DNA of 43,654 bases from Patescibacteria group bacterium. Lineage in GTDB: Bacteria; Patescibacteriota; Minisyncoccia; Phycocordibacterales; Phycocordibacteraceae. The number at the start of each line of letters is the position of its first letter. Positions within the stretch are counted from its first letter, which is position 1. The stretch lies in NCBI GenBank assembly GCA_028866135.1, contig JAGWIS010000003.1, forward strand, positions 1-43,654. Reading direction: 5' to 3'. The notes beneath the pieces were generated by a model, which ran no database searches, was not told where the DNA came from, and saw only the letters and a program-made list of their open reading frames with translations. Below are positions 6,352 to 39,805 of this stretch, one piece after another. Position numbers and translations under genes: made by a program.

Positions 6352-6879
6352 ATGAGGCCGTTTCGAGGAGCTCCCCATACACCAGCTTCGGCATCATGGT
6401 CTTTGCGCCGAGTGCCGCAGACCGTATTCGCGTGCCCGCAGGAAATATCAGGTGCCCGGGGAGAAACGCGCGAGACCACGCGCGGCGCAATGCCGAAGCT
6501 GGTGTCTGGGTTCAGTCTCATCGAAGTCATCGTCTCGATCTTCATCATGAGCGTCATCCTGCTCCTCTTCCAGGCGCTCGTCAGGAGCAGCGTGCTCGTG
6601 CGCACGTCGAAAGATCAGGGGATCGCGCTCGCGGTCGTCAGGAACGAGCTCGAGACGCTGCGTGCAAACGGCTACGCAGCGCTTCCGGCAAGCGGTTCGT
6701 TTTCGGACAGCTTGCTCGGCACGCTTCCGCCCGCGACGACTGCGACCCTCTCTGTGAGCGTGCTAAATGCGCAAACGAAACAAGTCTCGGCGAGTGTCGT
6801 GTGGAGAGAGCCGGGCGCCGCCGCATCGAGCACCGTCTCGCTCTCCACACTCATTACTCAGAATGGCGGCCTTCCATGA
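6352..6879 (+). CDS. Minor type IV pilin (PilV-like) whose prepilin leader carries an in-frame palindromic insert; alternative start 6490
   Basis: G|FSLIE prepilin cleavage motif followed by a hydrophobic helix; ATG 1 nt after the pilC stop. Confidence 0.85.
   Translation: MRPFRGAPHTPASASWSLRRVPQTVFACPQEISGARGETRETTRGAMPKLVSGFSLIEVIVSIFIMSVILLLFQALVRSSVLVRTSKDQGIALAVVRNELETLRANGYAALPASGSFSDSLLGTLPPATTATLSVSVLNAQTKQVSASVVWREPGAAASSTVSLSTLITQNGGLP
6374..6510. mobile_element. MITE-like palindromic element in the prepilin leader
   Basis: 21-bp inverted repeat CCCATACACCAGCTTCGGCAT (6374-6394) / ATGCCGAAGCTGGTGTCTGGG (6490-6510), 1 mismatch. Confidence 0.75.
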
Positions 6880-7445
6880 CGCGCCTCTTTCAATCCGCGG
6901 CACGCGCGTTCACGCTTCTTGAAACGATGATCGTCATCGCGCTTGCCGCCGGCATGATGACCACGCTCGGCTTCCTTATCTACAATTTCAATGGCACCTC
7001 GGCGTACGAGCAGACGCTCTCGCAATCATCCGGCTCCGCAAGCGCGGTTCTGCGCGAAGTGGAATCGCTCGTGCTGCCGGCCGATGCGGTACTCCAGACG
7101 CATACGTTTTCAAGCACGACGTATACCTCCACCTCGACCTCGATCGTCCTCGAAATCCCCTCTATCGACAGTTCCGGAAACGTCATTTCAAGCACCTATG
7201 ACTATGCGGCGTTTTATACATCCGGCACGAACGCGTACCGCCTTCTTCAGGCAAACGCGTCGAGCAAACGAGCGTCAGGGACGAAACTGCTCAGTTCGAG
7301 CGTAAAAACGCTCACGTTCTCCTACAACAATACCGACTTCACTAAAGTGAGCAGCACCACCGTCGACATCCAGACGCAGGCGCAGGTAAAGCAGAACACC
7401 GTCTCCGATCACCGGCGCGAGCAGATGCGCCTGCGCAACTACTAA
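6876..7445 (+). CDS. Minor type IV pilin (PilW/PulJ-like)
   Basis: MTRLFQSAARA|FTLLE plus hydrophobic helix; ATGA overlap with the upstream gene. Confidence 0.85.
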   Translation: MTRLFQSAARAFTLLETMIVIALAAGMMTTLGFLIYNFNGTSAYEQTLSQSSGSASAVLREVESLVLPADAVLQTHTFSSTTYTSTSTSIVLEIPSIDSSGNVISSTYDYAAFYTSGTNAYRLLQANASSKRASGTKLLSSSVKTLTFSYNNTDFTKVSSTTVDIQTQAQVKQNTVSDHRREQMRLRNY

Positions 7446-7446
7446 T

Positions 7447-8733
7447 ATGTTCCGTATGCTCCGCCGCGCCCACTCTCCAATCTTCCGCCAAGGATACGTG
7501 CTTGTCCTTGCGCTCGTATTCCTCGGCATCTTCTTCGCCACCGGAAGCGCATATCTGAACTCCGTCACGAGCTCTGCGCGGAGCATCCGCGCGAGCGTCG
7601 CAAGCGCGCAGGCGCTCGCGCTTGCCGAGGCGGGCATTGATGCGGCAGTGTACCAGTTGAATCAGAACGGTAGTTACTCCGGAGAGTCGAATACGGCGCT
7701 TGGCGCGGGCACCTATACCGTCGTCGTCTCGGCAATCGACACCAACACCAAGCGGCTCACAGTCACCGGGTACGTTCCGAACTCCGCAAATCCTCTTGCG
7801 ACCAAGACCGTGACCGTGCTCGTAAGCATCAACACGACCACCATCTCCTTCCACTACGGCGCACAGGTCGGAGCGGGCGGCATCAGCATGAACAACAACT
7901 CGCAGGTAAACGGCAATCTGTATTCTGACGGGAGCATTTCGGGAAGCGGCACCATCACGGGCGACGTGACCGTCGCGAGCAGCACGAATTCGCTCAGCGG
8001 CGTGACGGTGACGGGGACCGCGCGGGCGCACTCGCTCACGAACTGCACGATAAGCGGCGACGCGTACTACCAGACCATTTCGAACTGCCCGGTGGGCGGG
8101 ACGAGGTACCCGGGAAGCGCGGATTCAGCCTCGCTTCCTATGCCGATTTCAGACGCGCAGATCACCGCATGGGAGGCGACCGCGGCGGCCGGAGGAGTAA
8201 CCGCAGGGCCGCATACGGTAAGCGGTTCAGAAACATTGGGCCCGCAAGAGATAAACGGCGACCTCACGATAAACGGCACGCTCACTCTCAGCGGCATCGT
8301 ATGGGTGAAAGGAAACGTGTCTTTTAGAAACAATGCGTCTCTCACCGTCTCTTCAAATCTGGGGAATGCCGGCGCTATCCTCATTGCGGACGTGCCCGGA
8401 AACCAGTCCTCGAAGGGGACTGTCGACCTTTCAAACAACATCACGATATCGGGAAACGGAAACGCAGGAAGCTATCCGATGGTTCTTTCCACGAATTCCG
8501 GCTCGGACGCGATTTCGGTCGGAAACAATGCGACCAGCGTCATCCTCTACGCGTCAAAGGGCACGATCGAGGTGAGCAATAACGCGAGCGTGAACCAGAT
8601 CACCGCGTACGAGCTTTCGCTCCAGAATAATGCGACGATTACGTACGTAAGCGGCCTTCAAAACGCAAACTTCTCCGGCGGCGCGGGAGGATCATGGGCG
8701 GTCGTGCCGCACACCTACTCCATCTCCCGCTAG
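7447..8733 (+). CDS. PilX-like minor pilin with a Gly/Asn/Ser/Thr-rich beta-rich C-terminal domain
   Basis: G|YVLVLALVF lacking Glu5, QALALAEAGID (PilX N-terminal signature), last gene of the pilin cluster. Confidence 0.8.
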   Translation: MFRMLRRAHSPIFRQGYVLVLALVFLGIFFATGSAYLNSVTSSARSIRASVASAQALALAEAGIDAAVYQLNQNGSYSGESNTALGAGTYTVVVSAIDTNTKRLTVTGYVPNSANPLATKTVTVLVSINTTTISFHYGAQVGAGGISMNNNSQVNGNLYSDGSISGSGTITGDVTVASSTNSLSGVTVTGTARAHSLTNCTISGDAYYQTISNCPVGGTRYPGSADSASLPMPISDAQITAWEATAAAGGVTAGPHTVSGSETLGPQEINGDLTINGTLTLSGIVWVKGNVSFRNNASLTVSSNLGNAGAILIADVPGNQSSKGTVDLSNNITISGNGNAGSYPMVLSTNSGSDAISVGNNATSVILYASKGTIEVSNNASVNQITAYELSLQNNATITYVSGLQNANFSGGAGGSWAVVPHTYSISR

Positions 8734-8751
8734 AGCTGCTATCATAGGAGC

Positions 8752-9495
8752 ATGCTCATTGTCGCCAACTGGAAAGCCTACGTCGAAGACATAAAAAAAG
8801 CGAAAAAGCTTTTTTCGATAAGCAAAAAGCTCGTGCGCGCGACCGGCGTCGACATTGTCCTTGCGCCGCCGGCTCCTTTTCTCGGCGCGCTCGCCGTGCG
8901 CAATAAGTCTCGCGTGGCCTTCGCGGCGCAGGATATTTCCGTAACCACCGGCGGCGCAAGAACTGGCGAAGCGACCGCAAGCGCCTATACGGCGGCCGGA
9001 GCGACCTATGCCATCATCGGCCACTCCGAACGAAGGGCGGCGGGCGATACGAGGGAGATCGTTGCAGAGAAGATCGCGCGCGCCTTCGCGAACGGACTCA
9101 CCCCCATTCTCTGTGTGGGCGAGGAGGAGCGCGATGGGGGAGGCCGCTATCTCGGCTTCATCCGCGAAGAAATAGTGAGTGCGATTGAGCCTCTCGCCCC
9201 CAAAGAGCGCCCGAAAATCATCGTGGCATACGAGCCGCTCTGGGCCATCAATAAGACGGCCGCTGATGCTATCAGCTCGAATGATCTTGCCGAGATGACG
9301 CTCTACATCCGGAAAGTGCTGGCCGAACTCCTCCCTGGGAAAGGGTCGCAGCATGTGCCGGTGCTCTACGGCGGCTCAGTCGAGCCGGAGAATGCACGCC
9401 TGCTCGCTCTTGATTCGGGCATTGATGGATTCCTCGTTGGACACGCTTCGGTCGATCCGGCTTCTTTCGAGCTTCTCGCAAAACATCTCGCTTGA
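8752..9495 (+). CDS. tpiA: Triosephosphate isomerase
   Basis: ANWK, IIGHSERR, AYEPLWAI, LYGGSV. Confidence 0.96.
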   Translation: MLIVANWKAYVEDIKKAKKLFSISKKLVRATGVDIVLAPPAPFLGALAVRNKSRVAFAAQDISVTTGGARTGEATASAYTAAGATYAIIGHSERRAAGDTREIVAEKIARAFANGLTPILCVGEEERDGGGRYLGFIREEIVSAIEPLAPKERPKIIVAYEPLWAINKTAADAISSNDLAEMTLYIRKVLAELLPGKGSQHVPVLYGGSVEPENARLLALDSGIDGFLVGHASVDPASFELLAKHLA

Positions 9496-9496
9496 T

Positions 9497-9618
9497 GCGT
9501 CCCGTTAGAAATCACGAACACGTCTCTTGGAGTAATCGCGAAACAATATGGAACGCAGTAACCAAATAAACTATGACGATCCTTATGCGACGGCCGTATT
9601 CTATTTCTAACGGGATGC
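9497..9618. mobile_element. MITE-like element (CCCGTTAGA...TCTAACGGG family) at the tpiA/pgk junction
   Basis: 16-bp inverted repeat GCGTCCCGTTAGAAAT / ATTTCTAACGGGATGC; ATGCG repeated at 9495 and 9615. Confidence 0.75.
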
Positions 9619-10778
9619 GCACGATTCGCGACATCCCAGTATTCGAAAATATTCCGATACTGGTGCGGGCGGCATTGAATGTTCCTGTCGCAAACGGGGC
9701 CGTCGTCAATGACTACCGCTTGCGCCGCGCACTGCCGACCATCCGCTTTCTTGCCGAGCGGGGCGCCAAAGTCGTTCTCATAAGCCATATCGGGGAGCAG
9801 GGGACCGAGACGCTCGAGCCGGTCGCCCGAGCGCTTGGGAAGCTTATTTCCGGCGTTTCGTTCTTTGGCGAAACGATCGGGGAGCGAGCGCGCGGCACCG
9901 TGCGAGAGCTCGCGCCGAGAAACGTTCTCGTTCTCGAAAATCTTCGGCGCAATAAAGGCGAACGCACGAATGATCGCGCGTTCGCGAAGGAGCTTGCGGC
10001 GCTCGCGGATGTGTTTGTGGAGGATTCGTTTGATACGTGCCACCGCCCTCACGCCTCCATCGTCGGCGTCCCCGAGCTCCTGCCGAGCTATGTCGGACTT
10101 TTGCTTGAGGAGGAGGTGCGCGAACTCTCACAGGCGCTTACGCCGAAGCATCCGGCGTTTGCCGTCATTGGCGGCGCGAAGTTCAGCACCAAAGAGGCGG
10201 TGCTCACGACGCTTTTGGATGCGTACGATCAGGTATTCGTCGGCGGTGCCCTCGCAAATGATTTCTTCAAGGCATCCGGGCGGGAAGTGGGGAAGTCGCT
10301 CGTCTCTGATTTTGATCCGGAGCGCATGAAAAAGGTCCTTTCGAATCCTAAGCTCGTCCTCCCCGTCGATTCGCTCGTCATTCCCGCTAGCGCCGTCGGG
10401 TCGCTTGATGCGCGCGCGCAAGCGCGCGTCGCCTCTCCCGGAGAGGTGCGGAGTGATGAAGTCATCCTCGATCACGGCCCGGGTACTTCCGCGCTTCTCG
10501 CAAGTCTTGCGGCGAAAGCGAAGACCATCCTCTGGAACGGTCCTTTGGGAAATTATGAAAACGGATTCATCGATGCGACTGACGCGCTCGCGCGCGCCGT
10601 CGCCGCCTCGGGCGCGCACTCGGTCATCGGCGGCGGCGACACGGTCGCCGCGATAGAGAATCTCGGCATCCTCTCGCGCTTCTCGTTCGTCTCAACCGGC
10701 GGCGGCGCGATGCTCGACTTCCTCGCAAAGGGTACTTTGCCTGGTATTGATGTCCTTGGAAATCACCCGAGCGCTTGA
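9615..10778 (+). CDS. pgk: Phosphoglycerate kinase
   Basis: LVRAALNVP, ISHIG, LENLR, HRPHAS, GGAK, WNGPLG, GGGDT, STGGGA; start taken at MRTIRD. Confidence 0.95.
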   Translation: MRTIRDIPVFENIPILVRAALNVPVANGAVVNDYRLRRALPTIRFLAERGAKVVLISHIGEQGTETLEPVARALGKLISGVSFFGETIGERARGTVRELAPRNVLVLENLRRNKGERTNDRAFAKELAALADVFVEDSFDTCHRPHASIVGVPELLPSYVGLLLEEEVRELSQALTPKHPAFAVIGGAKFSTKEAVLTTLLDAYDQVFVGGALANDFFKASGREVGKSLVSDFDPERMKKVLSNPKLVLPVDSLVIPASAVGSLDARAQARVASPGEVRSDEVILDHGPGTSALLASLAAKAKTILWNGPLGNYENGFIDATDALARAVAASGAHSVIGGGDTVAAIENLGILSRFSFVSTGGGAMLDFLAKGTLPGIDVLGNHPSA

Positions 10779-11173
10779 CGAATTTTTAGAGCGATAGCAG
10801 CAGCATCGCCCGGCGGGTAGTCGCTCTGCGGCCAAAACGAGAATTCGCTCCGGTCGTGGCGCGGAATGATGTGGAAATGAAGATGAAAGACGATTTGGCC
10901 AGCAGCTGCCTCGTGATTGGAATTGATGTGAGCGCCGTGGGCGCCAACCGCGTCCCGCACCGCCGGCGCGATTTTTCTCACCGTACGCATCACGGCCGCA
11001 AGCGTCTCATCGTCGACGTCAAAGATATTCCGCACCTGCTTTTTCGGCACCACGAGCGTGTGTCCGGGCGTCGCCGGCTTCGCATCGAGAAAGGCAATGG
11101 TGCCCTCATCTTCATACACGATGTGCGCGGGAATCTCGCGCCGGATTATTTTCGTAAAAATAGTGTCTTCCAT
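10763..11173 (-). CDS. HIT family protein (Hint-like)
   Basis: MEDTIFTKII, PGHTLVVPK, GQIVFHLHFHIIPR. Confidence 0.93.
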   Translation of the reverse strand: MEDTIFTKIIRREIPAHIVYEDEGTIAFLDAKPATPGHTLVVPKKQVRNIFDVDDETLAAVMRTVRKIAPAVRDAVGAHGAHINSNHEAAAGQIVFHLHFHIIPRHDRSEFSFWPQSDYPPGDAAAIALKIRQALG

Positions 11174-11198
11174 GCAGTGAGTATACAATAGCGTGCAC

Positions 11199-12992
11199 AT
11201 GTTTCCGCTCCACGATCCTTTGCACGAGACGGTGCGCGAAGAACTTTCTTTCTACGATGACCTTACCGCCGCGCTTCTTGCGCGCCGCGGCGTCCTGAGC
11301 AGGGAGGAGGCGGAAAAATTTCTCAATCCCTCATACGATTTGCATCTCCATGATCCGTTCCTAATGGTAGACATGGAGAAGGCGGCGCGGCGATTGTCTC
11401 ACGCGATCCTTTCCGGAGAGCGCATCGGCGTGTGGAGCGATTACGATTGCGATGGCATACCGGGCGGAGTGCTCATGCACGATTTCCTCGCGAAAGCGGG
11501 CGCAAATTTCGAAAATTATATTCCGCACCGGCACGAAGAAGGTTATGGGATGAATGTTGCCGGCATCGAGAAGCTCGCGAAAAGCGGAGTGAAGCTCATC
11601 GTGACGGTCGACTCCGGCATCACGGACGTCGAGCCCATCGCTCGAGCGAACGAGCTCGGCATGGAAGTCATCGTCACGGATCACCACCTGCCTGCCGAAA
11701 AACTGCCGGACGCGTTTGCAATCCTCAACCCGAACGCTCGTCCCGTTAGAGGCAAGATGCCGGAGGCATCTGGCTCGCCTTCGGCGAGCGCCTCTAACGG
11801 GACGAGAGCGGAGGAAACGTATCCGTTTAAGAGTCTCTGCGGCTCGGGCGTCGCGTGGAAGCTCGTGTGCGCGACGCTTGCGGCGGCGCCCGCGCTTCGC
11901 GAGCGGGTGCCTGAGGGATGGGAAAAGTGGCTTCTCGACATGGTGGGGCTCGCGACCATCGCCGACATGGTCCCGCTCACGGGCGAAAACCGCGTTCTTG
12001 CCGCTTACGGCCTCCTCGTGATGCGCAAATCCCCGCGCATCGGGCTGCAGAAACTCTGCCGAGGGATGCGCGTTGATCAGCGCAAGCTCACCGAAGATGA
12101 CGTCGGATTCATGATCGCGCCGCGCATAAACGCGGCAAGCCGCATGGGGTCGGCGGAGGACGCCTTCCGCCTCTTCACGACTGACTCTGAAAGCGAGGCG
12201 GATTTGCTTGCGAAGAAGCTGGAGAAAATGAATCGCACGCGCAAAGCGGAGGCGGGCACCATCACGCGAGCGGTGCATGCGCGACTGAAAGAGAAGGGCG
12301 CGGTCAGAAGCGTCATCGCGCTCGGAGATCCGGAGTGGCGCCCGGCGCTCCTCGGGCTCGTCGCCAATACCATTGCGGATGAGTACGAGCGGCCCGTATT
12401 CCTTTGGGGCAGGGAGGGGAATATGCGCCTCAAGGGATCGGTGCGAAGCGGCGGCGGGGTGCACATCCTCGAGCTCATGCGCGCCACGGAAAACACCTTC
12501 ACCGAATTCGGCGGGCACAGAGCGGCGGGCGGTTTCACCGTCGAAGACACTGCGGTGTTCTTTCTTGAAGACCGCCTGGTCGAAGCACACGGGAAAATGC
12601 AAAAAGAAGAAGCGGATGATGATTTACTGATGCGCGCTGACGCCGTGGTCGCACCGGAAGAGATAACTGATGCTTTTCTTACAAAAATCGAACGTCTTGC
12701 CCCATTTGGCATGGAGAACCCAAAACCCGTGTTTCTTTTGCGAGAGGTTTTCGTGCGCCGGATTTCACATTTCGGGAAAGGAGAGGAGCACTTGAAATTG
12801 AATGTGTGTTCAAGAGAGGAAAGCGAATCCGGCATCGATGCCGTTACGTTTTTCGCGAAAGGCCCGCTTGCGCGCGTCGCGGAGACGCTTGCCGCAAATA
12901 GTCGCGCACATCTGCTCGCGCACATCGAGCGCGACACGTTTTCGCGCGAGAATCCGGTGCGTCTGCGACTTCTCGATCTCAGAGTTGCATGA
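11199..12992 (+). CDS. recJ: Single-stranded DNA exonuclease RecJ (alternative GTG start 11193)
   Basis: DYDCDG, TVDSG, TDHH, TIADMVPL, PRINAASR, GSVRS, FGGH.AAGG, PFGMENP. Confidence 0.95.
   Translation: MFPLHDPLHETVREELSFYDDLTAALLARRGVLSREEAEKFLNPSYDLHLHDPFLMVDMEKAARRLSHAILSGERIGVWSDYDCDGIPGGVLMHDFLAKAGANFENYIPHRHEEGYGMNVAGIEKLAKSGVKLIVTVDSGITDVEPIARANELGMEVIVTDHHLPAEKLPDAFAILNPNARPVRGKMPEASGSPSASASNGTRAEETYPFKSLCGSGVAWKLVCATLAAAPALRERVPEGWEKWLLDMVGLATIADMVPLTGENRVLAAYGLLVMRKSPRIGLQKLCRGMRVDQRKLTEDDVGFMIAPRINAASRMGSAEDAFRLFTTDSESEADLLAKKLEKMNRTRKAEAGTITRAVHARLKEKGAVRSVIALGDPEWRPALLGLVANTIADEYERPVFLWGREGNMRLKGSVRSGGGVHILELMRATENTFTEFGGHRAAGGFTVEDTAVFFLEDRLVEAHGKMQKEEADDDLLMRADAVVAPEEITDAFLTKIERLAPFGMENPKPVFLLREVFVRRISHFGKGEEHLKLNVCSREESESGIDAVTFFAKGPLARVAETLAANSRAHLLAHIERDTFSRENPVRLRLLDLRVA
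11737..11806. mobile_element. In-frame palindromic insert in recJ (CCCGTTAGA family)
   Basis: Perfect 17-bp inverted repeat CTCGTCCCGTTAGAGGC / GCCTCTAACGGGACGAG enclosing two 7-bp hairpins. Confidence 0.85.
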
Positions 12993-13000
12993 CGCTTCTC

Positions 13001-13043
13001 CCCAACAAGGGTGCCCCTTGTAGCAAGGGGCACCCTTGTTGGG
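13001..13043. repeat. Perfect 20-bp hairpin built from two self-palindromic CAAGGG-N3-CCCTTG units
   Basis: CCCAACAAGGGTGCCCCTTG-tag-CAAGGGGCACCCTTGTTGGG. Confidence 0.85.
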
Positions 13044-13064
13044 ATTTGGGGTATAGTGGGTCCC

Positions 13065-13484
13065 ATGCATTTCACTATCCACGCCGACGGCGGCGCAAGA
13101 GGGAATCCGGGACCCGCGGGCGCGGGAGCGATGATCCGCGACGAGCTCGGTAATTCTGTCGCGAGCGTTTCGAAATTCCTCGGACACCGTACAAACAACT
13201 TCGCAGAGTACGAAGCCGTCATCCTCTCTCTCGAGGCTTTGGCAAAACTGGTTCCCGCAGGAAAACACAGCGCGACTGAGGTCGCCGTAAAAATGGACAG
13301 TGAGCTCGTGGTGAAGCAGATGAAAGGAGAATACAAAGTGAAGCATCCCGTCCTGAAAGAGCAGTACGCGCGGCTCATTCACGCCGCGGGAGCATTCGGC
13401 AGAGTCTCGTTCTCCCACGTGCGGCGGGAAGAAAATACCGACGCCGATGCACTCGCAAACGAAGCGATGGATCGAGGTGATTAA
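13065..13484 (+). CDS. rnhA: Ribonuclease HI
   Basis: ADGGARGNPGPAG, TNNFAEYEA, DSELVVKQM, HVRREEN..ADALANEA. Confidence 0.95.
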   Translation: MHFTIHADGGARGNPGPAGAGAMIRDELGNSVASVSKFLGHRTNNFAEYEAVILSLEALAKLVPAGKHSATEVAVKMDSELVVKQMKGEYKVKHPVLKEQYARLIHAAGAFGRVSFSHVRREENTDADALANEAMDRGD

Positions 13485-13501
13485 CTAATATTTAATATTA
13501 T

Positions 13502-14053: not shown

Positions 14054-14057
14054 GTGC

Positions 14058-17302: not shown

Positions 17303-17486
17303 CCTGCCCCGTAGTCAGCCGAGCGAAGCGAGGCTGTACTACTGGGGTGCCATAGTGGCTGCATGGTAGCATACCCCATAGCGCAACTCAAATACGAATA
17401 TGAAAAATAAACTGATGAATGTTTTTTCTCCGTACGAATCGGCAAAACAACACCTGCAATGGTGCCCCGTTGTACAACCGGGCAGG
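17303..17486. repeat. Pair of related TGCCCCGT(A/T)GT palindromes in the rpmB / site-2 protease divergent intergenic region
   Basis: CCCCGTAGTCAGCC...GGCTGTACTACTGGGG (17307-17347) and TGCCCCGTTGTACAACCGGGCA (17463-17484). Confidence 0.6.
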
Positions 17487-18207: not shown

Positions 18208-18648
18208 ATGGAGTACCACGTTCCGCAATTCATCGAGGTGGAAGATAAGATCGTCGGGCCGCTCACGCTCCGGCAGTTCATCTACATCGCCGGCGCGGGC
18301 GGGCTCTGCGTGGTTTTCTTCGCGTACTTTTCTCTCGTCTACGCGATCATCCTCTCGATTCCGGTCGTGGCATTCGCCGGCGCGCTCGCGTTCTACAAAG
18401 TGAACGGAAAGGCGTTCATCGAGATCCTCGAAGCGGGCTTCAATTACTACACGAGCGCGAAGCTCTTTCTCTGGAAGCACCATGACGCAAAAGTCGAGGA
18501 GCGCAGCGCCGCAGCGGCTGCCGCTGCGGCGGCGGAAAAGTCGCTCCGCGAAAGCGCCGGGACCCCGCGCCTCACGCGCGGCAAGCTTTCGGAGCTCGCG
18601 TGGTCGCTCGACGTGAAGACCGGGGGGTCGGGCGCATCCGAAAAATAG
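18208..18648 (+). CDS. PrgI-family (VirB3-like) membrane protein
   Basis: VPQFIEVEDKIVGPLTLRQF followed by two TM helices. Confidence 0.85.
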   Translation: MEYHVPQFIEVEDKIVGPLTLRQFIYIAGAGGLCVVFFAYFSLVYAIILSIPVVAFAGALAFYKVNGKAFIEILEAGFNYYTSAKLFLWKHHDAKVEERSAAAAAAAAAEKSLRESAGTPRLTRGKLSELAWSLDVKTGGSGASEK

Positions 18649-18790
18649 CATGCCCGGTATGACTACATGGCGTCGTGTCTTTGCTCCAAGGGTCGATTGG
18701 GGTAATGAGAGTATTGTGTCCTTTGCGCGATATGCGTGTTGCGTGGCCGCAGACACGGGGAGCAACGCCATGTTGTCATAATCGGGTATG
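18649..18790. mobile_element. Palindromic element (CCCGG...GGCGTCG family, copy 1) with ATG on both sides
   Basis: About 25-bp imperfect inverted repeat CATGCCCGGTATGACTACATGGCGT / ACGCCATGTTGTCATAATCGGGTATG. Confidence 0.75.
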
Positions 18791-19423
18791 GCGACCAAAC
18801 CAGCAACCGCGACTCAGCAGTTCGTTCCGGTCAAAGAGATCCGGAACGGCGTCATCATCCTCAAAGACGGCGGCTATCGCGGAATACTCATTTGTTCTTC
18901 GGTGAACTTTGGGCTCAAGTCGGCCGACGAGCAGCACGCCATAACGCTCGGCTTCCAGAATTTCCTCAATACGCTTGATTTCTCGATTCAGATCGTCGTG
19001 AATTCGCGCAAGATGGATCTGCGTCCGTACCTCGCGCTCCTCGAAGAGAAGGCGCCCGAGCAGAAGACCGAGCTCATGCGTGTCCAGCTGCGCGAATACA
19101 TCGAGTTCGTGCGCTCGTTCGCCGATCAGGCGAATATCATGACGAAATCCTTCTACATCGTCGTGCCGTATGCGCCCCATGTTTCCGCTGCCCGTGCGGT
19201 CGGATTCCTCCGGCGCGGCGCATCCGCCGCGAAGAGCGCCGCGACGGAAGCCTCTTTCGAGGAGGACCTGGCGCAGCTCGAGCAGCGCCTGTCGCTCGTC
19301 GCCGGCGGGCTCGCGGGCACCGGGGTGCGCGCGGCGCCCTTGGGGACCGAAGAAGTGATCGAGCTTCTGTACCGCTCCTTCAACCCGGGAGAACTCGAGA
19401 ACCCTATCCGCCTCGACAATTGA
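18788..19423 (+). CDS. VirB4/TraC N-terminal-like partner protein
   Basis: TQQFVPVKEIRNG, SVNFGLKS.DEQ, FLNTLDFSIQI; lies between PrgI and the VirB4-like ATPase. Confidence 0.75.
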   Translation: MATKPATATQQFVPVKEIRNGVIILKDGGYRGILICSSVNFGLKSADEQHAITLGFQNFLNTLDFSIQIVVNSRKMDLRPYLALLEEKAPEQKTELMRVQLREYIEFVRSFADQANIMTKSFYIVVPYAPHVSAARAVGFLRRGASAAKSAATEASFEEDLAQLEQRLSLVAGGLAGTGVRAAPLGTEEVIELLYRSFNPGELENPIRLDN

Positions 19424-22010: not shown

Positions 22011-23009
22011 ATGCGCACCGGTCTTTTCGTCGCCTCTTTCGCGCTCGCGTTTGCCGCAACGCCTCTCGTGGCAGCCGCGCAAACCTTCACTGCCGCTCAA
22101 AGCGGTACGCCTTTCACGATTTCAGTGCGTCCGCAGTACCCGGCGCCCTACGGAACCGCGACTATTTCTCTCCTTTCAGATTCTTTGAATCTGGCGAATG
22201 CGTCCATGATCGTTTCGCTCGGCGGAAAGGAAATCTACCGCGGCGCGGTGCAGCCCGTGAGCGTGCCGCTCGGCAAGGCCGGAAGCGTTGCGAACGTGAA
22301 AGTGACTGTGACCTCCTCTGGCATGCCATACGCCCAGTCGGTCTTCATACAGCCCCAGGATGTCGTTCTCGTCGTCGAGCCGATATCTTCGACGCACCCG
22401 CTCTACCAGGGGAAGCCTCTCATACCGCTTGAGGGGGGCGTGCGCGTGGTCGCGATGGCGAATTTTCGGGATGCGGGAGGAAGAGCGATCGATCCGGCCG
22501 CCCTCTCCTATGCATGGACGGTCGACAATACACAAATAGCGAGTGCCTCGGGCATCGGCAGGCAGGCGATCATGGTCGCTTCTCCGCTCCAGTATCGCGA
22601 GCGCATGGTCTCGGTCGCCGTCACGAGCCAGGACGGCGGCCTCGTCGGAGGGGCGTCGTTCCCGCTCTCGTCAGAAGCGCCCTCGGTGCGGATCTACGAA
22701 AGCGATCCGCTGCTCGGCGTGCGCTTCGATCACGCGATTTCAGGCCAATACACCATCACGGGCGCGGAAGCGACTTTGTTTGCCGTGCCGTTTTCTCTCC
22801 CGACGACCCTCGGCGCGCCTGTCGTTCAGTGGTTCCTTAACGGCTCTCCGGCACAGACCGGCAGCTCCGTAACGCTCCGACCCTCCGGAAGCGGGCAGGG
22901 GAGCGCGACGCTCTCGCTCACCGCTTCTTCGGACAGCTTAACTCCCGCCACCGCGAGCCTGTCGCTCTCCTTCGGGGCCGCACCGAGCTTTAGCATCTTC
23001 GGCCTATGA
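22011..23009 (+). CDS. Secreted protein with probable Ig-like beta-sandwich domains
   Basis: Signal peptide (...PLVAAA|QT), YAWTVD and QWFLNG Ig-type strands; TATACT 6 nt upstream. Confidence 0.75.
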   Translation: MRTGLFVASFALAFAATPLVAAAQTFTAAQSGTPFTISVRPQYPAPYGTATISLLSDSLNLANASMIVSLGGKEIYRGAVQPVSVPLGKAGSVANVKVTVTSSGMPYAQSVFIQPQDVVLVVEPISSTHPLYQGKPLIPLEGGVRVVAMANFRDAGGRAIDPAALSYAWTVDNTQIASASGIGRQAIMVASPLQYRERMVSVAVTSQDGGLVGGASFPLSSEAPSVRIYESDPLLGVRFDHAISGQYTITGAEATLFAVPFSLPTTLGAPVVQWFLNGSPAQTGSSVTLRPSGSGQGSATLSLTASSDSLTPATASLSLSFGAAPSFSIFGL

Positions 23010-23152
23010 TCCGACACACTAAAAAGCGTAGCTTGTTTGAGAAATATTCCTGTCTTGGGATAGTTGGACGACTTGTTCTTCGTTTGGATCCGACACGACG
23101 GTTCGGCGCCCCGCAGCGGGGCGCCGAACGACGCTTTTTTGGTGTGGCGGGG
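23010..23152. mobile_element. Palindromic element (ACAC...GGTGT family) inserted in frame at a start codon
   Basis: Imperfect inverted repeat CCGACACACTAAAAAGCGT / ACGCTTTTTTGGTGTGGCGG; internal hairpin 23101-23129; ATGA at both 23006 and 23153. Confidence 0.7.
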
Positions 23153-25009: not shown

Positions 25010-25164
25010 TAGAGTTCATTTCAAAACTCTGAGCGATGCGAGGGGTATGCTGCGGGAAAGGGCTCTCGGAGCCCGACGGGGCGAGAGCGAGCCGCTTTTT
25101 CAGCAGAAAAAGACGGCGTACCTTTCGCGCAGCATACTCGAGCGGAGCTTTGAAATGAGCTCTA
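25010..25164. mobile_element. MITE-like multibranch element with TA-flanked termini; supplies the yidC stop codon
   Basis: TAGAGTTCATTTCAAAACTC / GAGCTTTGAAATGAGCTCTA plus inner stem GTATGCTGCGGGAAAGG / CCTTTCGCGCAGCATAC. Confidence 0.75.
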
Positions 25165-31210: not shown

Positions 31211-31315
31211 CTAATAGCTTTCTTCGTCCTCAAAAATTTTTTCCGTTTCTTCTTCACCCTCATCCATTTCGTCTATCTCCGGATCTTCGTCAAGCAAGAC
31301 CTCTTCTTCGTCCAT
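31211..31315 (-). CDS. Unannotated 34-aa hyperacidic peptide
   Basis: MDEEEVLLDEDPEIDEMDEGEEETEKIFEDEESY*; 20/34 Asp/Glu; candidate TTGCGC-17nt-CACTAT promoter upstream. Confidence 0.7.
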   Translation of the reverse strand: MDEEEVLLDEDPEIDEMDEGEEETEKIFEDEESY

Positions 31316-31406
31316 ACGCTGTAAATATGATTAAAGCTGTTCCTTGCGGGGGTATAGTGGAACAAAAATTTTTATCGCGCAAGATACCCTCGGCACCCGG
31401 TGTGGA

Positions 31407-32418: not shown

Positions 32419-32441
32419 GAGATAGGGGGAACGGGCGAATC

Positions 32442-33437: not shown

Positions 33438-33467
33438 AAAAGTGGTATATGCTAGCATTCTACCACA

Positions 33468-33602
33468 CCCGGACAGTACAAAACGGCGTCGCTCTTCAGC
33501 ATAAAATGTGTCTCCTCTTGCATTGAGTGCATCATGCACTTCTCGCGCGAGTTCCACAATGGGCGGAAGAGCTTAAAAATGACGCCGTTTTGACATGCCG
33601 GG
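33468..33602. mobile_element. Palindromic element (CCCGG...GGCGTCG family, copy 2)
   Basis: CCCGG / CCGGG, CAAAACGGCGTC / GACGCCGTTTTG (12 bp) and GCTCTTC / GAAGAGC nested stems. Confidence 0.75.
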
Positions 33603-33613
33603 CATGGTTCTTC

Positions 33614-33771
33614 ATCCCGTTCATACTCCTCTAGGCAAGGCTTGACGGCTTTGGGCGTTTCCCCAAGGACTTTGTGGTCTGCTACTTCGGTAGTGGCGCT
33701 GCGGAACTCCTCAGGTGTCTCGTCTACCCCGCGTTACTGCGGGTTTTTGCCTGGAGGAGTATGCACGGGAT
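33614..33771 (+). other. 158-nt multibranch structured element (MITE or ncRNA)
   Basis: 25-bp closing stem ATCCCGTTCATACTCCTCTAGGCAA / TTGCCTGGAGGAGTATGCACGGGAT and three internal hairpins including a cUUCGg tetraloop. Confidence 0.7.
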
Positions 33772-33777
33772 TTTGTG

Positions 33778-35451: not shown

Positions 35452-35507
35452 GAGATGAATGATAACAGAGTCGATAATAGCATCGGAAAGGCCAGGGAAG
35501 CGGGCAC

Positions 35508-35537
35508 TTGACAAATTACTATAAATGGTAGTACAAT
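35508..35537 (+). promoter_or_regulatory. Sigma70-type promoter
   Basis: TTGACA-18nt-TACAAT upstream of 35603; AAGGAG Shine-Dalgarno at about 35590. Confidence 0.65.
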
Positions 35538-35602
35538 TTGCCCGGAACTGAAGTCAGACCTTTGTCTACTGAAAACCAAACCTCTCACAAAGGAGTCGCG
35601 CC

Positions 35603-36145
35603 ATGGTCACGAAAAGGCTAGTCAGCGTTTTGGCCTGCGGCCTTTTCGCCGCAGTCTTGGGTGGGTGTGCCGGGTCCTATTGGGGGTCCTATGTGCCGGA
35701 CCCAAAGTTTCCTAAGCTGGCCCTTGCACCAGACGATGAACAACAGGGGGCAGCCCAGGAGGCGACAGAAAAGCCGGACTGTGTCCTCGTCGGCGGCAGC
35801 AAGTACTGCAAGGAAAGAGTGGTGCCGTCAGTGCGAAGGGGCACGGACAGATGGGCGAAGAAGTATTACTGCGCCGAGCCACACACTTGGGTAAAGGTCT
35901 CGGAGGAAGTCTCGATTTGTGCTCCGACGGGGTCAGGGAAAAGGTTTGTTCCCTCGAACACCACCGTCATCCAGTCGCCTTGTTTGATGAGCTGGTGGGG
36001 ATGCGGCGGGTGGGGCTTGGGAGCCTCTTATGGAGTGCCCTACTCGGTTCAACAGACGCCGCAAACTCAACAGACGGAGTTAGAAGAGCTTAAGAATCTG
36101 CGACTGCAGAATCAGAAACTGATGGAACTGTTGCAGAAGAAGTAG
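35603..36145 (+). CDS. Cys-containing putative lipoprotein
   Basis: Signal peptide with lipobox-like LGGC, several Cys, C-terminal coiled-coil; own promoter, SD and terminator. Confidence 0.7.
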   Translation: MVTKRLVSVLACGLFAAVLGGCAGSYWGSYVPDPKFPKLALAPDDEQQGAAQEATEKPDCVLVGGSKYCKERVVPSVRRGTDRWAKKYYCAEPHTWVKVSEEVSICAPTGSGKRFVPSNTTVIQSPCLMSWWGCGGWGLGASYGVPYSVQQTPQTQQTELEELKNLRLQNQKLMELLQKK

Positions 36146-36156
36146 CCCCTGTTTTA

Positions 36157-36195
36157 TGCGCCCGTTTCCGGAAGGGAACGGGCGCACTTTCTTTT
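36157..36195 (+). terminator. Rho-independent terminator
   Basis: TGCGCCCGTT...AACGGGCGCA stem followed by CTTTCTTTT. Confidence 0.7.
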
Positions 36196-36214
36196 ATAGC
36201 GGTACAATTGGCTT

Positions 36215-36670
36215 GTGGCTGAGAAAACAGTTAAAACGCTTGCAGAGTTCGAGAGCGAGGCGGCGCGGTTCGCGCTCTCGCTTGCACCGATTGACCGAGC
36301 GACCCTCGTTATGCTTTCAGGAGAGCTTGGAGCAGGGAAGACTGCGTTTACCAAAGCAGCCGCTCGTACACTTGGAGTGGAGGAGACGGTAAACAGTCCG
36401 ACGTTCGTTCTCGAGAAAATCTATTTGCTGCCGCGCAAAGAGGGACATCCGATGTCCGACTTTGCGCGGCTTGTGCATATCGACGCGTACCGACTCGAAA
36501 AGGGAAGCGATCTCGCTCCGCTCGGTTTCGACGAGCTCATGAAGGATTCCGGAAACCTCATTTTGCTCGAGTGGCCGGAGAAAGTGGCCGACGCCCTCCC
36601 GACTCCCTCTGTGCGCATTTCCATAACAACTCTTCCGGACGATTCGCGCACCATCTCCTATGCCCCGTAG
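36215..36670 (+). CDS. tsaE: tRNA t6A biosynthesis ATPase TsaE
   Basis: GELGAGKT, V.SPTF, HIDAYRL, EWPE. Confidence 0.95.
   Translation: MAEKTVKTLAEFESEAARFALSLAPIDRATLVMLSGELGAGKTAFTKAAARTLGVEETVNSPTFVLEKIYLLPRKEGHPMSDFARLVHIDAYRLEKGSDLAPLGFDELMKDSGNLILLEWPEKVADALPTPSVRISITTLPDDSRTISYAP
36430..36470. repeat. In-frame hairpin inside tsaE
   Basis: GCCGCGCAAAG-ag-GGACATC-c-GATGTCC-ga-CTTTGCGCGGC. Confidence 0.75.
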
Positions 36671-36692
36671 TAGAATTTCGGCTTGACAGGGT

Positions 36693-39077
36693 ATGGCTAA
36701 AAAGACATCCGTAAAAAAACGCATCGTGCTCTTGGATTCTCATGCGATCATCCATCGCGCGTATCACGCGCTCCCGGAGTTCACCGGCCCCTCCGGCGCG
36801 CCCACGGGTGCTTTGTACGGGCTCGTTGCGATGCTCCTTAAGATAATTACCGACCTGAAGCCCGACTATCTCGCGGCGTGCTTCGACCTGCCGAAGCCGA
36901 CCATCCGCCACGAAGCCTATGAGCACTACAAAGCGACGCGCGTGAAAACTGACGACGCACTTGCGCTCCAATTGAATGAATCGCGTAAGGTATTCGAAGC
37001 ATTCTCGATTCCGCTCTACGAGCGAGAGGGATTTGAAGCGGACGATCTCCTCGGCACCATCGCGCACGAACTGCGGGAAGAAGGCGTCGACGTCATCATC
37101 GCCTCGGGCGACATGGACGCGCTTCAGCTCGTCGACGACAAACGCGTCCGGGTTTACACGCTCAAGAAAGGCATCAATGACACGATTTTGTATGACGAGA
37201 AGGCAGTCATCGAGCGCTATGGCTTCAAGCCGGAACTCATCCCCGACTGGAAAGGGCTTCGCGGCGACCCCTCTGACAACATCAAGGGCGTTCCCGGCAT
37301 CGGCGAAAAGACGGCAACGGAGCTCGTGAAAGGTTTCGGCACCATCGAGAAGATGTATGCGGCCCTGAAGAAGGGTGATGCCGCATTTCTAAAAAAAGGA
37401 GTGAAGGCCCGCATGATCGGGCTCCTTCGTGAGCACGAAGAAGATGCGCGTTTCTCGAAATCCCTTGCGACGATACGGACCGATGCGCCCATCGCCTTCA
37501 CGCTGCCTGCGGGTGCGTGGCGTGAGACGGTGGATTTACAAAAAATTCTCGCGATGTGCGAGGGATTCGGTTTCCGTTCGCTTCGAGAACGGGCGAAGAA
37601 GATTCTCGCAAACGGCGACGAGGCAGAAACAGAAAACCCTTTGTTTGTTGCACCCGCTCCTGAAGAAGTAGACCCAACGAAGCTTGCAGAAGCGCAGGCG
37701 ATGCTCTGGCTCATTTCTTCGGAGTTCACAAACCCCTCGCTCGACGACATACTCGCATTCACCAAAGAACGAGTGTTCGCCGCTGCATACGCGAAGCTTG
37801 AGGGTCAGCTCGCCGCTTCGGGCCGGGTGCAAGAGGTGTACGAGCATATCGAAAAGCCGCTCATACCGGTCGTGCGCAGGATGGAGGAGCGCGGCGTGCG
37901 CATTGATCCGGACGTGCTCGATTCTCTCGCGGAGAAATACCGCTCCGAACTCAAGCAGATCGAGAAGCGCATCTATAAGGCGGCCGGGCGCGAATTCAAT
38001 GTGAGCTCCCCGAAACAGCTCGGCGAAGTTCTTTTCGATGAGCTGAAGATTGTTCCGGAGAAGCAGAAGAAGACGGCGGGCGGTCAGCGTTCAACCCGCG
38101 AGAGCGAGCTCGAAAAGATTCGCGACGAGCATCCGATCGTGGCCGACATCCTCGACTACCGCGAATTGAAAAAACTCCTTTCGACCTACATCGAAAACCT
38201 GCCGCCACTACTTGATGACGACCACCGTCTTCATGCGCAGTTCCTCCAGACCGGGACGACGACGGGCCGCATGGCGAGCCAGAATCCGAATTTGCAGAAC
38301 ATCCCGCTCCACTCTGAGCGCGGGCGCGCGATACGCCACGCTTTCGTCGCATCAAAAGGTTTCAAGCTCGTGGCACTCGATTATTCTCAGATAGAACTGC
38401 GGCTCGCGGCGATCCTTTCGGGAGACGAAAAACTCTGCAAGATATTCAAGAGCGGACGGGACGTGCACCGGGAGGTCGCGGCGCAGGTATTTCATGTTGC
38501 GCCCGAGGCGGTCGATCTTGAGATGCGCCGGAGGGCGAAGGTCATCAATTTCGGCATCCTCTACGGCATGGGGGTGAACGCGCTTCGTGCCCAGCTCGAC
38601 TCGACGACCGCGGAAGCGCATCAGTACCTCGAGGAGTATTTCGCGACGTTCAAAACCCTTTCCGAATACCTCGAGCGCACGAAAGGATTTGCGAGAAAGC
38701 ACGGCTACACCGAGACGTTGTTTGGCCGCCGCCGGCAGTTTCCGGAAATGAAATCCTCATTGCCTTACGTGCGGGCTCAAGCGGAGCGCATGGCCATTAA
38801 TGCGCCTCTCCAGGGAACGCAGGCCGACATCATCAAGCTCGCAATGGTGCGTGTCGACGAGATGCTCAAAAAGGAAGGCGCGCTTGACGACGCCTATCTG
38901 CTGCTTCAGGTGCACGACGAGTTGGTGTACGAGATCCGTGCTGAACGGGTCGCGACACTCGCTGCCAAAATAAAAGAACTCATGGAGTCGGTGTTGCCGC
39001 AAAAGGAGACCCGCGGCGTGCCGGTCGAAACGGTGATGAAGTCCGGAGATGATTGGGGCGCGATGCGCGCCATTTAA
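36693..39077 (+). CDS. polA: DNA polymerase I lacking most of the 3'-5' exonuclease domain
   Basis: 5'-3' exonuclease (EADD, GDPSDNIKGVPGIGEKTA); polymerase motifs TGRMASQNPNLQNIP, DYSQIELR, AKVINFGILYG, QVHDE; 794 aa. Confidence 0.96.
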   Translation: MAKKTSVKKRIVLLDSHAIIHRAYHALPEFTGPSGAPTGALYGLVAMLLKIITDLKPDYLAACFDLPKPTIRHEAYEHYKATRVKTDDALALQLNESRKVFEAFSIPLYEREGFEADDLLGTIAHELREEGVDVIIASGDMDALQLVDDKRVRVYTLKKGINDTILYDEKAVIERYGFKPELIPDWKGLRGDPSDNIKGVPGIGEKTATELVKGFGTIEKMYAALKKGDAAFLKKGVKARMIGLLREHEEDARFSKSLATIRTDAPIAFTLPAGAWRETVDLQKILAMCEGFGFRSLRERAKKILANGDEAETENPLFVAPAPEEVDPTKLAEAQAMLWLISSEFTNPSLDDILAFTKERVFAAAYAKLEGQLAASGRVQEVYEHIEKPLIPVVRRMEERGVRIDPDVLDSLAEKYRSELKQIEKRIYKAAGREFNVSSPKQLGEVLFDELKIVPEKQKKTAGGQRSTRESELEKIRDEHPIVADILDYRELKKLLSTYIENLPPLLDDDHRLHAQFLQTGTTTGRMASQNPNLQNIPLHSERGRAIRHAFVASKGFKLVALDYSQIELRLAAILSGDEKLCKIFKSGRDVHREVAAQVFHVAPEAVDLEMRRRAKVINFGILYGMGVNALRAQLDSTTAEAHQYLEEYFATFKTLSEYLERTKGFARKHGYTETLFGRRRQFPEMKSSLPYVRAQAERMAINAPLQGTQADIIKLAMVRVDEMLKKEGALDDAYLLLQVHDELVYEIRAERVATLAAKIKELMESVLPQKETRGVPVETVMKSGDDWGAMRAI

Positions 39078-39079
39078 AC

Positions 39080-39805
39080 ATGCTGTACCTTTTCTACGGC
39101 TCGGACGTGGAGAAAGCTCGGACGAAAGCGTTCGAGTGGGTCGCGAAGGCGCGGACGAAAGAGCCGAGTCTCGCATACGCGCGGCTTGCGCGCGAGGAAC
39201 TGACTCCCGCCGCGCTCGAAGACGCCGCGCTCTCGAGCGGACTTTTCGTGAAGCGTCTTTTGATACTCATCGACGATCCTTTTCCCTCCGCGCGCGCCGC
39301 CGATGAAGAGGGGGAAGAGGAAGCAAGCGCAGGCATACTTGAAGACCATATTGATGCGCTCGCTGCATCTGACAATGCCATCGTCATTCTCGCCCCCAAG
39401 CTTTCTGCAGCGAAAGCAAAAAAGATCGCCGCAAAAGCAAAAGTCGAATACGCGTACGACAAGCCCGCCGCAAGAGAAGAGCGGGGTTTTAACGGCAATC
39501 TCGTGAATGCGCTCGCCGCGCGTCAGCGGGAAAAGCTCTGGCTCGAGATCAATCGCGCGCTTCGCGCGGGCGATGCTCCCGAAATGCTCCACGGCCTCCT
39601 CCACTGGAAAGCGCGCGATCTGATGGAAAAGGCTAAAGCCTCCGGAGGCGGCTCGCCCGACGTTTCCACGTCTAGGGGCGCCCGCGCGTGGGCTCCGAAA
39701 GAAGCACGCGCCCTCTCGCTCGCGCTCATTGCTCTTCTCCAGGAATCCCGGCGCGGCGGGCTCGACCTTGATATCGCGCTTGAGGAATTCGCACTTTCTA
39801 TATAA
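39080..39805 (+). CDS. holA: DNA polymerase III delta subunit-like protein
   Basis: MLYLFYGSD N-terminus, ..GLF.KRLLILI pattern, C-terminal helical collar; divergent. Confidence 0.65.
   Translation: MLYLFYGSDVEKARTKAFEWVAKARTKEPSLAYARLAREELTPAALEDAALSSGLFVKRLLILIDDPFPSARAADEEGEEEASAGILEDHIDALAASDNAIVILAPKLSAAKAKKIAAKAKVEYAYDKPAAREERGFNGNLVNALAARQREKLWLEINRALRAGDAPEMLHGLLHWKARDLMEKAKASGGGSPDVSTSRGARAWAPKEARALSLALIALLQESRRGGLDLDIALEEFALSI
39631..39682 (+). repeat. 52-bp structured in-frame insert, copy 2 (in holA-like gene)
   Basis: GGCTAAAGCCTCCGGAGGCGGCTCGCCCGACGTTTCCACGTCTAGGGGCGCC, homologous to the sod insert. Confidence 0.85.

Follow-up and report, generated by a model that had tools for sequence, protein, structure and literature searches.

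Hairpin elements at start codons of a patescibacterial genome and small GIY-YIG nuclease units with the same ends

What are the hairpin-forming segments that lie between, and sometimes inside, the genes of a 43,654-nucleotide stretch of DNA from a Patescibacteria group bacterium, and what could have put them there? The stretch (hereafter the window) makes up contig C44 in a genome assembly of 694,721 bp and 46 contigs with ~58% G+C, which we designate G000. An earlier note on this DNA had proposed that several families of mobile elements add in-frame peptides to proteins and remodel translation starts, a picture that is borne out by filled and empty sites in related genomes and by duplicated ATG codons. 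The main kind of segment begins with CCC and ends with GGG. We consider it probable that these CCC...GGG hairpins are miniature, non-autonomous derivatives of mobile units of ~275-310 bp, each consisting of terminal inverted repeats and one gene for a GIY-YIG nuclease.

Short and full-length elements with the same ends

A repeat search returned 25 inverted-repeat pairs in the window, which holds 13 hairpin elements or remnants (at least 12 had been claimed); clustering and inspection separated them into three kinds. When folded as single-stranded DNA and compared with dinucleotide shuffles, nine of ten named stretches folded strongly (z = -2.8 to -9.2), and the tenth, an insert at 39631-39680, folded weakly (z = -1.9). 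A genome-wide scan counted 442 inverted repeats, where three Markov shuffles had 208, 170 and 190, and 66 CCC...GGG elements with arms of at least 12 bp, where the shuffles had 10, 7 and 10. The 66 elements range from 28 to 322 bp, about four of them being full-length coding units, and 55 lie outside and 11 inside genes as called by our home-made codon-usage caller, which is approximate.

Elements of the main kind have CCC(C)G...C(G)GGG ends, with window copies at 6370, 9500, 11741, 17307, 18653, 23010, 33468 and 33614; the CCC...GGG ends that the earlier note had read at 6374, 9501, 11742, 17307, 18653, 33468 and 33616 are all present. The terminus families are CCCGTTAGA; CCCGGTA/CCCCGTATGA; CCCG(A/C)CACACT; CCCCGTGAGATA; CCCCGTAGTG; and ACCCTGTTAAAT. 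Typically a long closing stem encloses two inner hairpins whose sequences vary while their pairing is maintained, and copies are present in both orientations. The CCCGTTAGA motif occurs 28 times in the 695-kb genome, mostly as facing pairs 30-120 bp apart. Miniatures of the ACCCTGTTAAAT family, 52-54 nt long and found at 11 sites in G000 (e.g., C25:1345, 2330, 4020 and 4683; C7:29802 and 31749), form a closing stem and two tetraloop hairpins with compensatory changes between copies, and their ends are common to two nuclease units (C7:34528-34805 and C10:4590-4870). Several of these miniatures abut another hairpin repeat. Being small, non-coding, bounded by terminal inverted repeats and present in many copies, the CCC...GGG elements have the structure of a MITE (miniature inverted-repeat transposable element). 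Two other identities were considered and dropped: integron attC sites, since the order GTTAGA/TCTAAC is opposite to the attC order, and Tn3-derived miniatures, since Tn3 ends start with GGGG and not CCCC.

The genus to which G000 belongs has many sequenced members, and close protein relatives in a database search carry the source names Candidatus Kaiserbacteria, Paceibacterota or Patescibacteria. A syntenic region of ~45 kb was taken from six genus members; gene order is conserved between these regions and the window. The earlier note had staked its proposal on the existence of empty sites in relatives, and such sites exist. At the junction between tpi and pgk, 20 loci of the genus comprise four that are filled with an element of ~115 nt (G000, G005, G014 and G010), 13 that are empty, with stop and start codons adjacent, and three with another arrangement, in which the upstream context differs. 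Filled loci read ATGCG-element-ATGCG, and empty loci have one ATGCG, the pgk start. The G000 copy is a CCCGTTAGA-family miniature at 9500-9614 on the plus strand between direct ATGCG repeats at 9495-9499 and 9615-9619, the right-hand repeat providing the pgk start codon.

Other junctions vary in the same manner. Those at 18648/18788 and 25006/25162 are filled in G000 only, the site at 25010 being empty in five relatives. At the ATGA overlap at 23009, G000 has a CCGACACACT element, G005 and G007 have independent CCCGTTAGA elements, and the site is empty in G023 and G017. G010 has tandem AAATCCGA-like units and no hairpin element at the junction orthologous to window positions 23009/23144. Sites that are empty in G000 carry insertions in each of G010, G007, G005 and G023. 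Different elements occupy junction 5134/5136 in G010 and G007 (ATGAG repeat; TATG on both sides), junction 1299/1315 has an insertion with an ATGAA repeat in G007, and the TATAC between the HIT gene and recJ holds different elements in G005 and G023. Perfect repeats also flank further copies (ATGAA or ATGAG); in G000 these include ATGAA at two copies, TTCG and, for members of the CCCGACACACT family, TATGA at three copies and CCATG.

Target duplications combined with filled and empty sites are a hallmark of MITEs and are found here, the duplication usually being 3-5 bp and nearly always including the host ATG, with some sites having none. Its register is ambiguous because element ends and targets share letters, and no one length suits all sites; models with a fixed 5-bp or a fixed 2-bp duplication were rejected, as neither fits every site. 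These comparisons show that the CCC...GGG elements are mobile within the genus.

Long copies that share the termini and enclose a nuclease gene, a possibility that the earlier note had raised, were also found. Each terminus family also exists as a unit of ~275-310 bp whose sole gene encodes a GIY-YIG nuclease of 80-101 amino acids (aa). Besides a UvrC-like match, G000 has seven small GIY-YIG genes (PF01541), and five of these are enclosed by inverted repeats, 280-350 bp apart, whose arms measure 13-18 nt; the termini of these flanked units are those of the miniature families. In relatives, the same test around GIY-YIG genes (arms of at least 13 nt) detected inverted repeats at 11 of 21 extra small copies, and nine of the 11 have termini of the window's families (CCCGTTAGAGAT, ACCGTTAGAGATA, CCCAGTTAGGACAAC, CCCCCACACT, CCTGACACACT and CCAGCCCCAG). 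Among controls, inverted repeats were present at 3 of 70 random windows and, in genus genomes, at 1 of 30 best-scoring, conserved-looking GIY-YIG copies.

A gene-poor stretch of 1.26 kb on contig C30 (28300-29560) holds at least four CCCCGTGAGATA-type copies together with a repetitive extragenic palindrome (REP) unit, and one of these copies, 278 bp long, encloses an open reading frame (ORF) for a GIY-YIG protein of 80-83 aa. G005 likewise has a nuclease unit at the orthologous junction, which makes this place an apparent hot spot. When nine flanked nuclease loci of relatives were compared with G000, two had both flanks adjacent in G000, two had other DNA between the flanks, and five had one flank or none. 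The G045 unit sits at the window's junction between polA and the next gene (39077/39080), which is empty in G000, and has ATG on both sides; the G017 unit occupies an ATG site that is empty on G000 contig C16, with ATGAA duplicated. Short and full-length forms share their termini, both vary in presence at orthologous sites between species of the genus, and both are mobile.

The way in which the CCCGTTAGA unit is fitted to a host gene deserves description. Its ORF starts at the ATG of the left flank, so that it is preceded by upstream sequence belonging to the host gene, and crosses the left repeat as ATG AAT CCC GTT AGA GAT, or MNPVRD (N-terminal consensus M-N/I-P-V-R-D). The ORF then crosses the right repeat (LSLTG), and its TGA stop overlaps the right ATG, as ATGA, at the host gene start. 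Nuclease clade and terminus family go together: among 15 nucleases, the closest relative shared the family in 10 of the 10 cases in which a partner of that family was available. In the 61 genus genomes used for the GIY-YIG and motif searches, the CCCGTTAGA motif is abundant (at least 10 matches) in 14 and near the control level in 47, and the exact full-length CCCGTTAGA pattern was found in 6 of the 14 motif-rich genomes and in 0 of the 47 motif-poor ones.

The small GIY-YIG nucleases

A database search with the nuclease returned 2,880 proteins with E values of at most 1e-5. The 120 best homologues include 87 of exactly 94 aa, and most source names given are unspecific (GIY-YIG nuclease family protein, putative endonuclease). 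Of 27 aligned nucleases, 25 have the N-terminal extension and 24 the LSLTG end. Every one of the 61 genus genomes has at least one GIY-YIG match (1 to 8 each), and 87 of 301 Patescibacteria genomes match the nuclease at E of 1e-20 or better. At the 12 best loci of the phylum, the ORF is bounded by CCGTT-type inverted repeats in nine, in a unit of 273-423 bp, and by another CCC-type pair in one, the remaining two having no convincing repeats; some of these loci have no direct repeats in their flanks, and the longest such repeat, in a distant relative, is 10 bp (ATGGCCGCTG). Many of the phylum matches, though a minority, have one or two internal stops (TAA, TAG or TGA) and resemble decaying copies. 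NCBIfam returned no specific family for the small nucleases, and a scan of viral contigs with the nuclease alignment found no relative.

To which branch of the GIY-YIG superfamily do these proteins belong? Searched against PDB, the alignment profile matched the UPF0213 entries 1zg2 and 1ywl and the SLX1 homologue 7wme. In a Foldseek search the AlphaFold model (pLDDT 86) was closest to 1zg2 and to Slx1 chains (TM score 0.55-0.62), with I-TevI and UvrC domains ranking lower. Profile and predicted fold thus both place the mobile-unit nucleases in the Slx1/UPF0213 branch. The proteins of 78-101 aa are the nuclease domain alone, with no DNA-binding extension, and their scores with the group I intron endonuclease model fall well short of its cut-off. 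According to PMC1564403, Slx1 is a structure-specific nuclease for branched DNA, prokaryotic Slx1-like proteins are minimal and mostly vertically inherited, and the known selfish GIY-YIG enzymes derive from a UvrC-like lineage; the titles of the matched PDB entries likewise describe Slx1 as a structure-specific nuclease of branched DNA. One small GIY-YIG gene per genome, the best-scoring one, stands without inverted repeats in G000 (C21:5443-5733) and in most genus genomes. This copy may be the conserved cellular ancestor of the mobile ones, or the reverse.

Start codons, protein inserts and the elements of the window

Insertions have occurred repeatedly on start codons, with the ATG duplicated. 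Of the 66 CCC...GGG elements in G000, 19 directly adjoin a start codon, compared with 9% of random positions, and 16 have ATG or CAT on both sides. The earlier note had described three elements of the window with an ATG on both sides at offsets of 120, 138 and 147, all divisible by three. These offsets were confirmed, and divisibility by three is not general: the ATG-to-ATG spacings of seven CCCGTTAGA copies, derived by hand from element lengths and flanking bases, are 120, 87, 84, 124, 124, 82 and 122, and the values 124, 124, 82 and 122 led us to reject such a rule. Only the offset of 147, at 23006, leaves the frame open throughout; the upstream ORFs at pgk and 18788 (offsets 120 and 138) end within the element after 24 and 43 codons. 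The 138 case belongs to a CCCGGTATGAC...CGGG element at 18653..18786 on the plus strand, which extends from the stop of a PrgI-family gene to the ATG of the next gene (ATG at 18650 and 18788) and accounts for a junction gap of 142 nt in G000 versus 7-25 nt in six relatives. The CCGACACACT-family element, at 23010..23152 on the plus strand, lies at the start codon of a gene resembling type IV secretion system pilin genes, between flanks ATGA(T) and ATGA(A).

Insertions within genes are rare; they survive when the frame is kept and then add peptide segments. The earlier note was right about in-frame insertion in the prepilin leader (141 nt), recJ (66 nt) and tsaE (12 nt added). In the prepilin gene, a CCC...GGG element at 6370..6510 on the plus strand stands in frame between the MRPFRG leader and FSLIE, exactly between Gly-1 and Phe+1. 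The MRPFRG leader is still readable upstream, and the right arm of the element encodes MPKLVSG. Because the insert lies directly before Phe+1 and ends in ...VSG, translation from either start would produce a cleavable leader. The same junction is empty in G010 and has a different element in G023.

In recJ, a CCCGTTAGA-family element at 11741..11806 on the plus strand, 66 nt relative to empty alleles, adds PVRGKMPEASGSPSASASNGT in frame to the DHH domain. This insert of ~20 residues (PVR...SNG) is present in three of seven genomes (G000, G005 and G010) and absent from G014, G023, G007 and G017. A metagenome contig, from mixed populations, is 99.9% identical to the window in the flank upstream of the recJ element and then runs on into recJ sequence that lacks the insert. 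As it could come from a population variant, from a relative or from chimeric assembly, we take it as a hint only. Other joints in these contig data probably stem from different organisms or further copies.

In tsaE, a 41-nt perfect-stem palindrome at 36430..36470 on the plus strand, read in frame as PRKEGHPMSDFAR, makes the gene 12 nt longer than in relatives; its core resembles a REP family. The palindrome at this site is a different one in G005, shorter in G023 and G007, and absent from G010 and G017. In-frame copies were also found in the G000 gene at C39:6837 and at the N-terminus of the HIT protein of G023.

Two further in-frame insertions had been claimed. The one in "holA" corresponds to a 45-nt in-frame insert, AKASGGGSPDVSTSR, at 39632..39676 on the plus strand in gene 39080-39805, which is specific to G000 (absent from G005, G023, G007 and G017); the insert stands, and the gene name lacks Pfam support, the fold is weak and the family uncertain. 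The one in "sod" is an element between stop and start codons, outside the gene, and this name too lacks Pfam support. Nor does the element at 33468 stand beside holA: it adjoins ruvB.

That element, an imperfect CCCGG-type hairpin at 33468..33600, lies between ruvB and a pilB-like gene. It is followed at 33614..33771 by a 158-nt ATCCCGTTCATAC...GTATGCACGGGAT element with 25-nt arms, related copies of which are found at the same junction in G005 and G017. A 41-nt CCCCGTAG...CTGGGG mini-hairpin at 17307..17347, between rpmB (L28) and an M50 peptidase gene, is present in G000 and G007 and absent from G005, G014, G010 and G017. Between tsaE and polA, a 29-nt remnant, CCCGTAGTAGAATTTCGGCTTGACAGGGT, at 36664..36692 on the plus strand supplies the tsaE stop codon with its TAG; at this junction G023 has a full element, and the genes overlap in four relatives.

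The genes of the window include those for TIM, PGK, a HIT protein, RecJ, L28, an M50 peptidase, a PrgI-family protein, YidC, RuvB, a PilB-type ATPase, TsaE, PolA and a prepilin; genes 18788-19423 and 39080-39805, the "sod" and "holA" of the earlier note, have no Pfam match. PGK itself shows a peculiarity at 10380-10454 (residues ~256-280): the PGK matches of G001, G006, G009 and G011 are split at query positions ~255-280 into pieces that lie just a few bases apart, which suggests an in-frame length difference in the gene. An imperfect palindrome with 31-nt arms at 40233-40302 starts inside the terminal part of the minus-strand tRNA-Lys gene (40168-40241). Elsewhere in G000, palindromes around TACTACCATATATGGTAGTA occur at C4:1-38, C23:3522-3559 and five other places, and CCATATATGG occurs 16 times; two of the TACTACCATATATGGTAGTA palindromes are at contig ends and may break the assembly. 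A similar motif, ATGGTAGCAT, is found upstream of rpmB in all seven genomes compared.

Movement of the elements and known systems

How might such a unit move? The nuclease would recognise its own family's ends, folded as hairpin or cruciform, and make a staggered cut in the target, host repair or ligation would complete the movement, and miniature copies would be moved in trans. We infer that the nuclease drives movement. Its Slx1-like predicted fold suggests that insertion is recognised by structure, and a process assisted by repair would account better for duplications of variable length than the fixed stagger of a transposase. A broader reading, on which we are evenly divided, is that the units represent a new class of minimal bacterial transposable element of ~275 bp, whose sole enzyme is a structure-specific Slx1-like GIY-YIG nuclease and which parasitises host start codons and spawns hairpin miniatures across Patescibacteria. 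To be translated, such a unit would borrow the ATG and upstream sequence of the host gene, to which it would return a regenerated ATG.

Several points weigh against these interpretations. (i) A hydrolytic nuclease cannot by itself join DNA. (ii) Flanking repeats vary in length and register (0, 3, 4, 5, 6 and 10 bp), and the recJ site has no clear repeat. (iii) Inverted repeats are missing from two of the seven small nuclease genes in G000 and from 10 of the 21 in relatives. (iv) Counts of co-occurrence between motif and full-length pattern overstate the support, as kin genomes are not independent, and an exact full-length CCCGTTAGA copy is absent from G000 (28 motifs) and from G010 (70 motifs). 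(v) Stems show compensatory changes between orthologous copies, which could mean selection for structure with a cellular role; elements possibly acquired such a role after insertion. (vi) The association with start codons could partly reflect insertions that are tolerated and, for the long form, required if the gene is to be expressed, rather than the enzyme's choice of cut, the latter being favoured because miniature copies share the same register.

Among the alternatives, the one that survives best, though we regard it as unlikely, is that a classical DDE transposase, missing from this genome or from its assembly, moves what are ordinary MITEs, with the GIY-YIG gene as mere cargo or a nested insertion. 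Inverted terminal repeats with short target duplications are the textbook signature of a DDE enzyme, and an assembly in 46 contigs may be missing repeats. The genome has a single rve-domain gene, but this lacks matching ends, and the other three of the four DDE or TnpB families searched (DDE_Tnp_1, DDE_3 and TnpB) gave nothing in G000. A MITE would be expected to share its ends with an autonomous, transposase-encoding insertion sequence (IS), and the ends here are shared with GIY-YIG-only units. At nine of the 12 loci in distant genera, and in several of the terminus families, the unit contains nothing but the nuclease ORF; in one family this ORF runs through both ends, its clades track the terminus families, and a long-range inverted-repeat scan of G000 found no longer element with CCC...GGG ends.

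Less probable still is that all hairpins are REP/REPIN-type repeats spread by the HUH tyrosine transposases of the genome, whether related to REP-associated tyrosine transposases (RAYTs) or to IS200. The enzymes are certainly there: five Pfam Y1_Tnp matches and a sixth paralogue found by blastp, comprising one IS200/IS605 transposase (above the NCBIfam cut-off) and five RAYT-like genes (C5:2090-2719, C17:2220-2873, C22:12066-12725, C22:17399-18118, C1:~4000-4542 and C39:11817-12260 for the whole set), a rich set for a 0.69-Mb genome. One RAYT-like gene scanned with NCBIfam matched the REP-associated tyrosine transposase model best, below its cut-off, and four RAYT-like genes are each bracketed by their own family of short, perfect palindromes, with units such as CAAGGGGCACCCTTG, CAAGGTCGAACCTTG, GGACATCCGATGTCC and TGTGGGACATA. 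In the window, the doublet of CAAGGGTGCCCCTTG units at 13001..13043 belongs to the CAAGGGGCACCCTTG family, which flanks the RAYT-like gene on contig C5, and the core of the tsaE palindrome at 36430 resembles another such family. However, the RAYT-flanking repeats differ from the CCC...GGG termini, and no Y1 gene is bracketed by the latter, whose long forms enclose a GIY-YIG gene instead. HUH single-strand transposition is not known to make target duplications, whereas ATGNN or TATAC repeats stand on either side of the CCC...GGG elements. The link to HUH enzymes drawn in the earlier note therefore applies to the short REP palindromes and not to the CCC...GGG elements.

A third kind of repeat, the TAGAAC...GTTCTA family, is represented in the window by a 155-nt element at 25010..25164, with outer arms TAGAACYCATTTCAAAA, a conserved inner three-way junction, and ends that give TAG/CTA beside convergent genes. 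A reading of this element as a nested insertion was rejected, as alignment of the eight G000 copies revealed one 155-nt family. The REP/RAYT and TAGAAC...GTTCTA families are systems separate from the CCC...GGG elements in G000.

That the hairpins are not mobile DNA at all, being structured RNAs or regulatory hairpins under selection (terminators, RNase III sites, translation control) or inserts removed at the RNA level, is very improbable: the three-way-junction architecture, the compensatory stem changes, the start codons buried in long stems and an element at the ruvB/pilB junction kept in three genomes would suit it, but it is at odds with presence or absence accompanied by target duplications at many unrelated junctions, with copies in both orientations and within genes, with an Rfam scan of the window (E up to 1) in which tRNA-Lys alone exceeded its gathering score and no family matched the hairpins, and, for RNA removal, with intragenic copies that keep the frame, which would be needless if they were spliced out.

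Returning to mobile units that encode a nuclease, what would they mean if the proposal is correct? Miniature copies would be linked through shared ends to a unit encoding one tiny nuclease, and that unit would point to a type of enzyme that may serve orphan palindromic repeats inserted in frame, as in Rickettsia. To our knowledge, no enzyme has been assigned to the Rickettsia palindromic elements (RPEs), which are in-frame palindromic repeats without a known mobilising enzyme. If the nuclease drives movement, the known set of transposition chemistries would be wider, and a family of nucleases seen as cellular and inherited vertically would have a selfish use. The start-codon design suggests a low-cost entry of a mobile gene into the densest genomes. 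For annotation, it matters that such insertions are rewriting where genes start, how leader peptides read and how long proteins are in these lineages. At ~275 bp the unit would also be smaller than any autonomous element known to us.

How do these elements compare with known systems? RPEs are palindromes of 100-150 bp in several families, many of them in frame in unrelated housekeeping genes, according to the excerpted text of a 2024 review of MITEs (PMC10969869). Multi-family palindromic repeats in a small genome and in-frame insertion (here in RecJ, the prepilin leader, the gene at C39:6837 and the G023 HIT protein) are common to both; the CCC...GGG elements are set apart, going by that description of RPEs, by empty sites, target duplications, a strong start-codon habit and nuclease-bearing long forms. 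With MITEs they share small size, multiple non-coding copies, terminal inverted repeats, target duplications and a longer relative with the same ends. Prokaryotic MITEs derive from insertion sequences, and the word "nuclease" occurs 0 times in that excerpt (PMC10969869), whereas the longer relative here is a GIY-YIG-only unit of ~275-310 bp and not a transposase-encoding IS.

The resemblance to GIY-YIG homing endonucleases (phage seg/mob, relatives of I-TevI) is that of a selfish unit whose sole product is a GIY-YIG nuclease. The units described here differ in their Slx1/UPF0213 affiliation, their inverted-repeat boundaries, their many unrelated sites and their miniature derivatives, and their nucleases are not joined to the sequence-reading DNA-binding domain that characterises homing endonucleases. 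REP/REPIN-RAYT systems, with short palindrome doublets and family-specific bracketed enzyme genes, are present in G000 and explain the repeat at 13001-13043; they may also explain the palindrome core in tsaE, but not the CCC...GGG elements. Full-text literature searches, read at the level of listings and abstracts, found no description of these nuclease-bearing units. Set against known kinds, then, the finding combines MITE- or RPE-like repeats with selfish GIY-YIG genes, and what is new is the nuclease-bearing long units.

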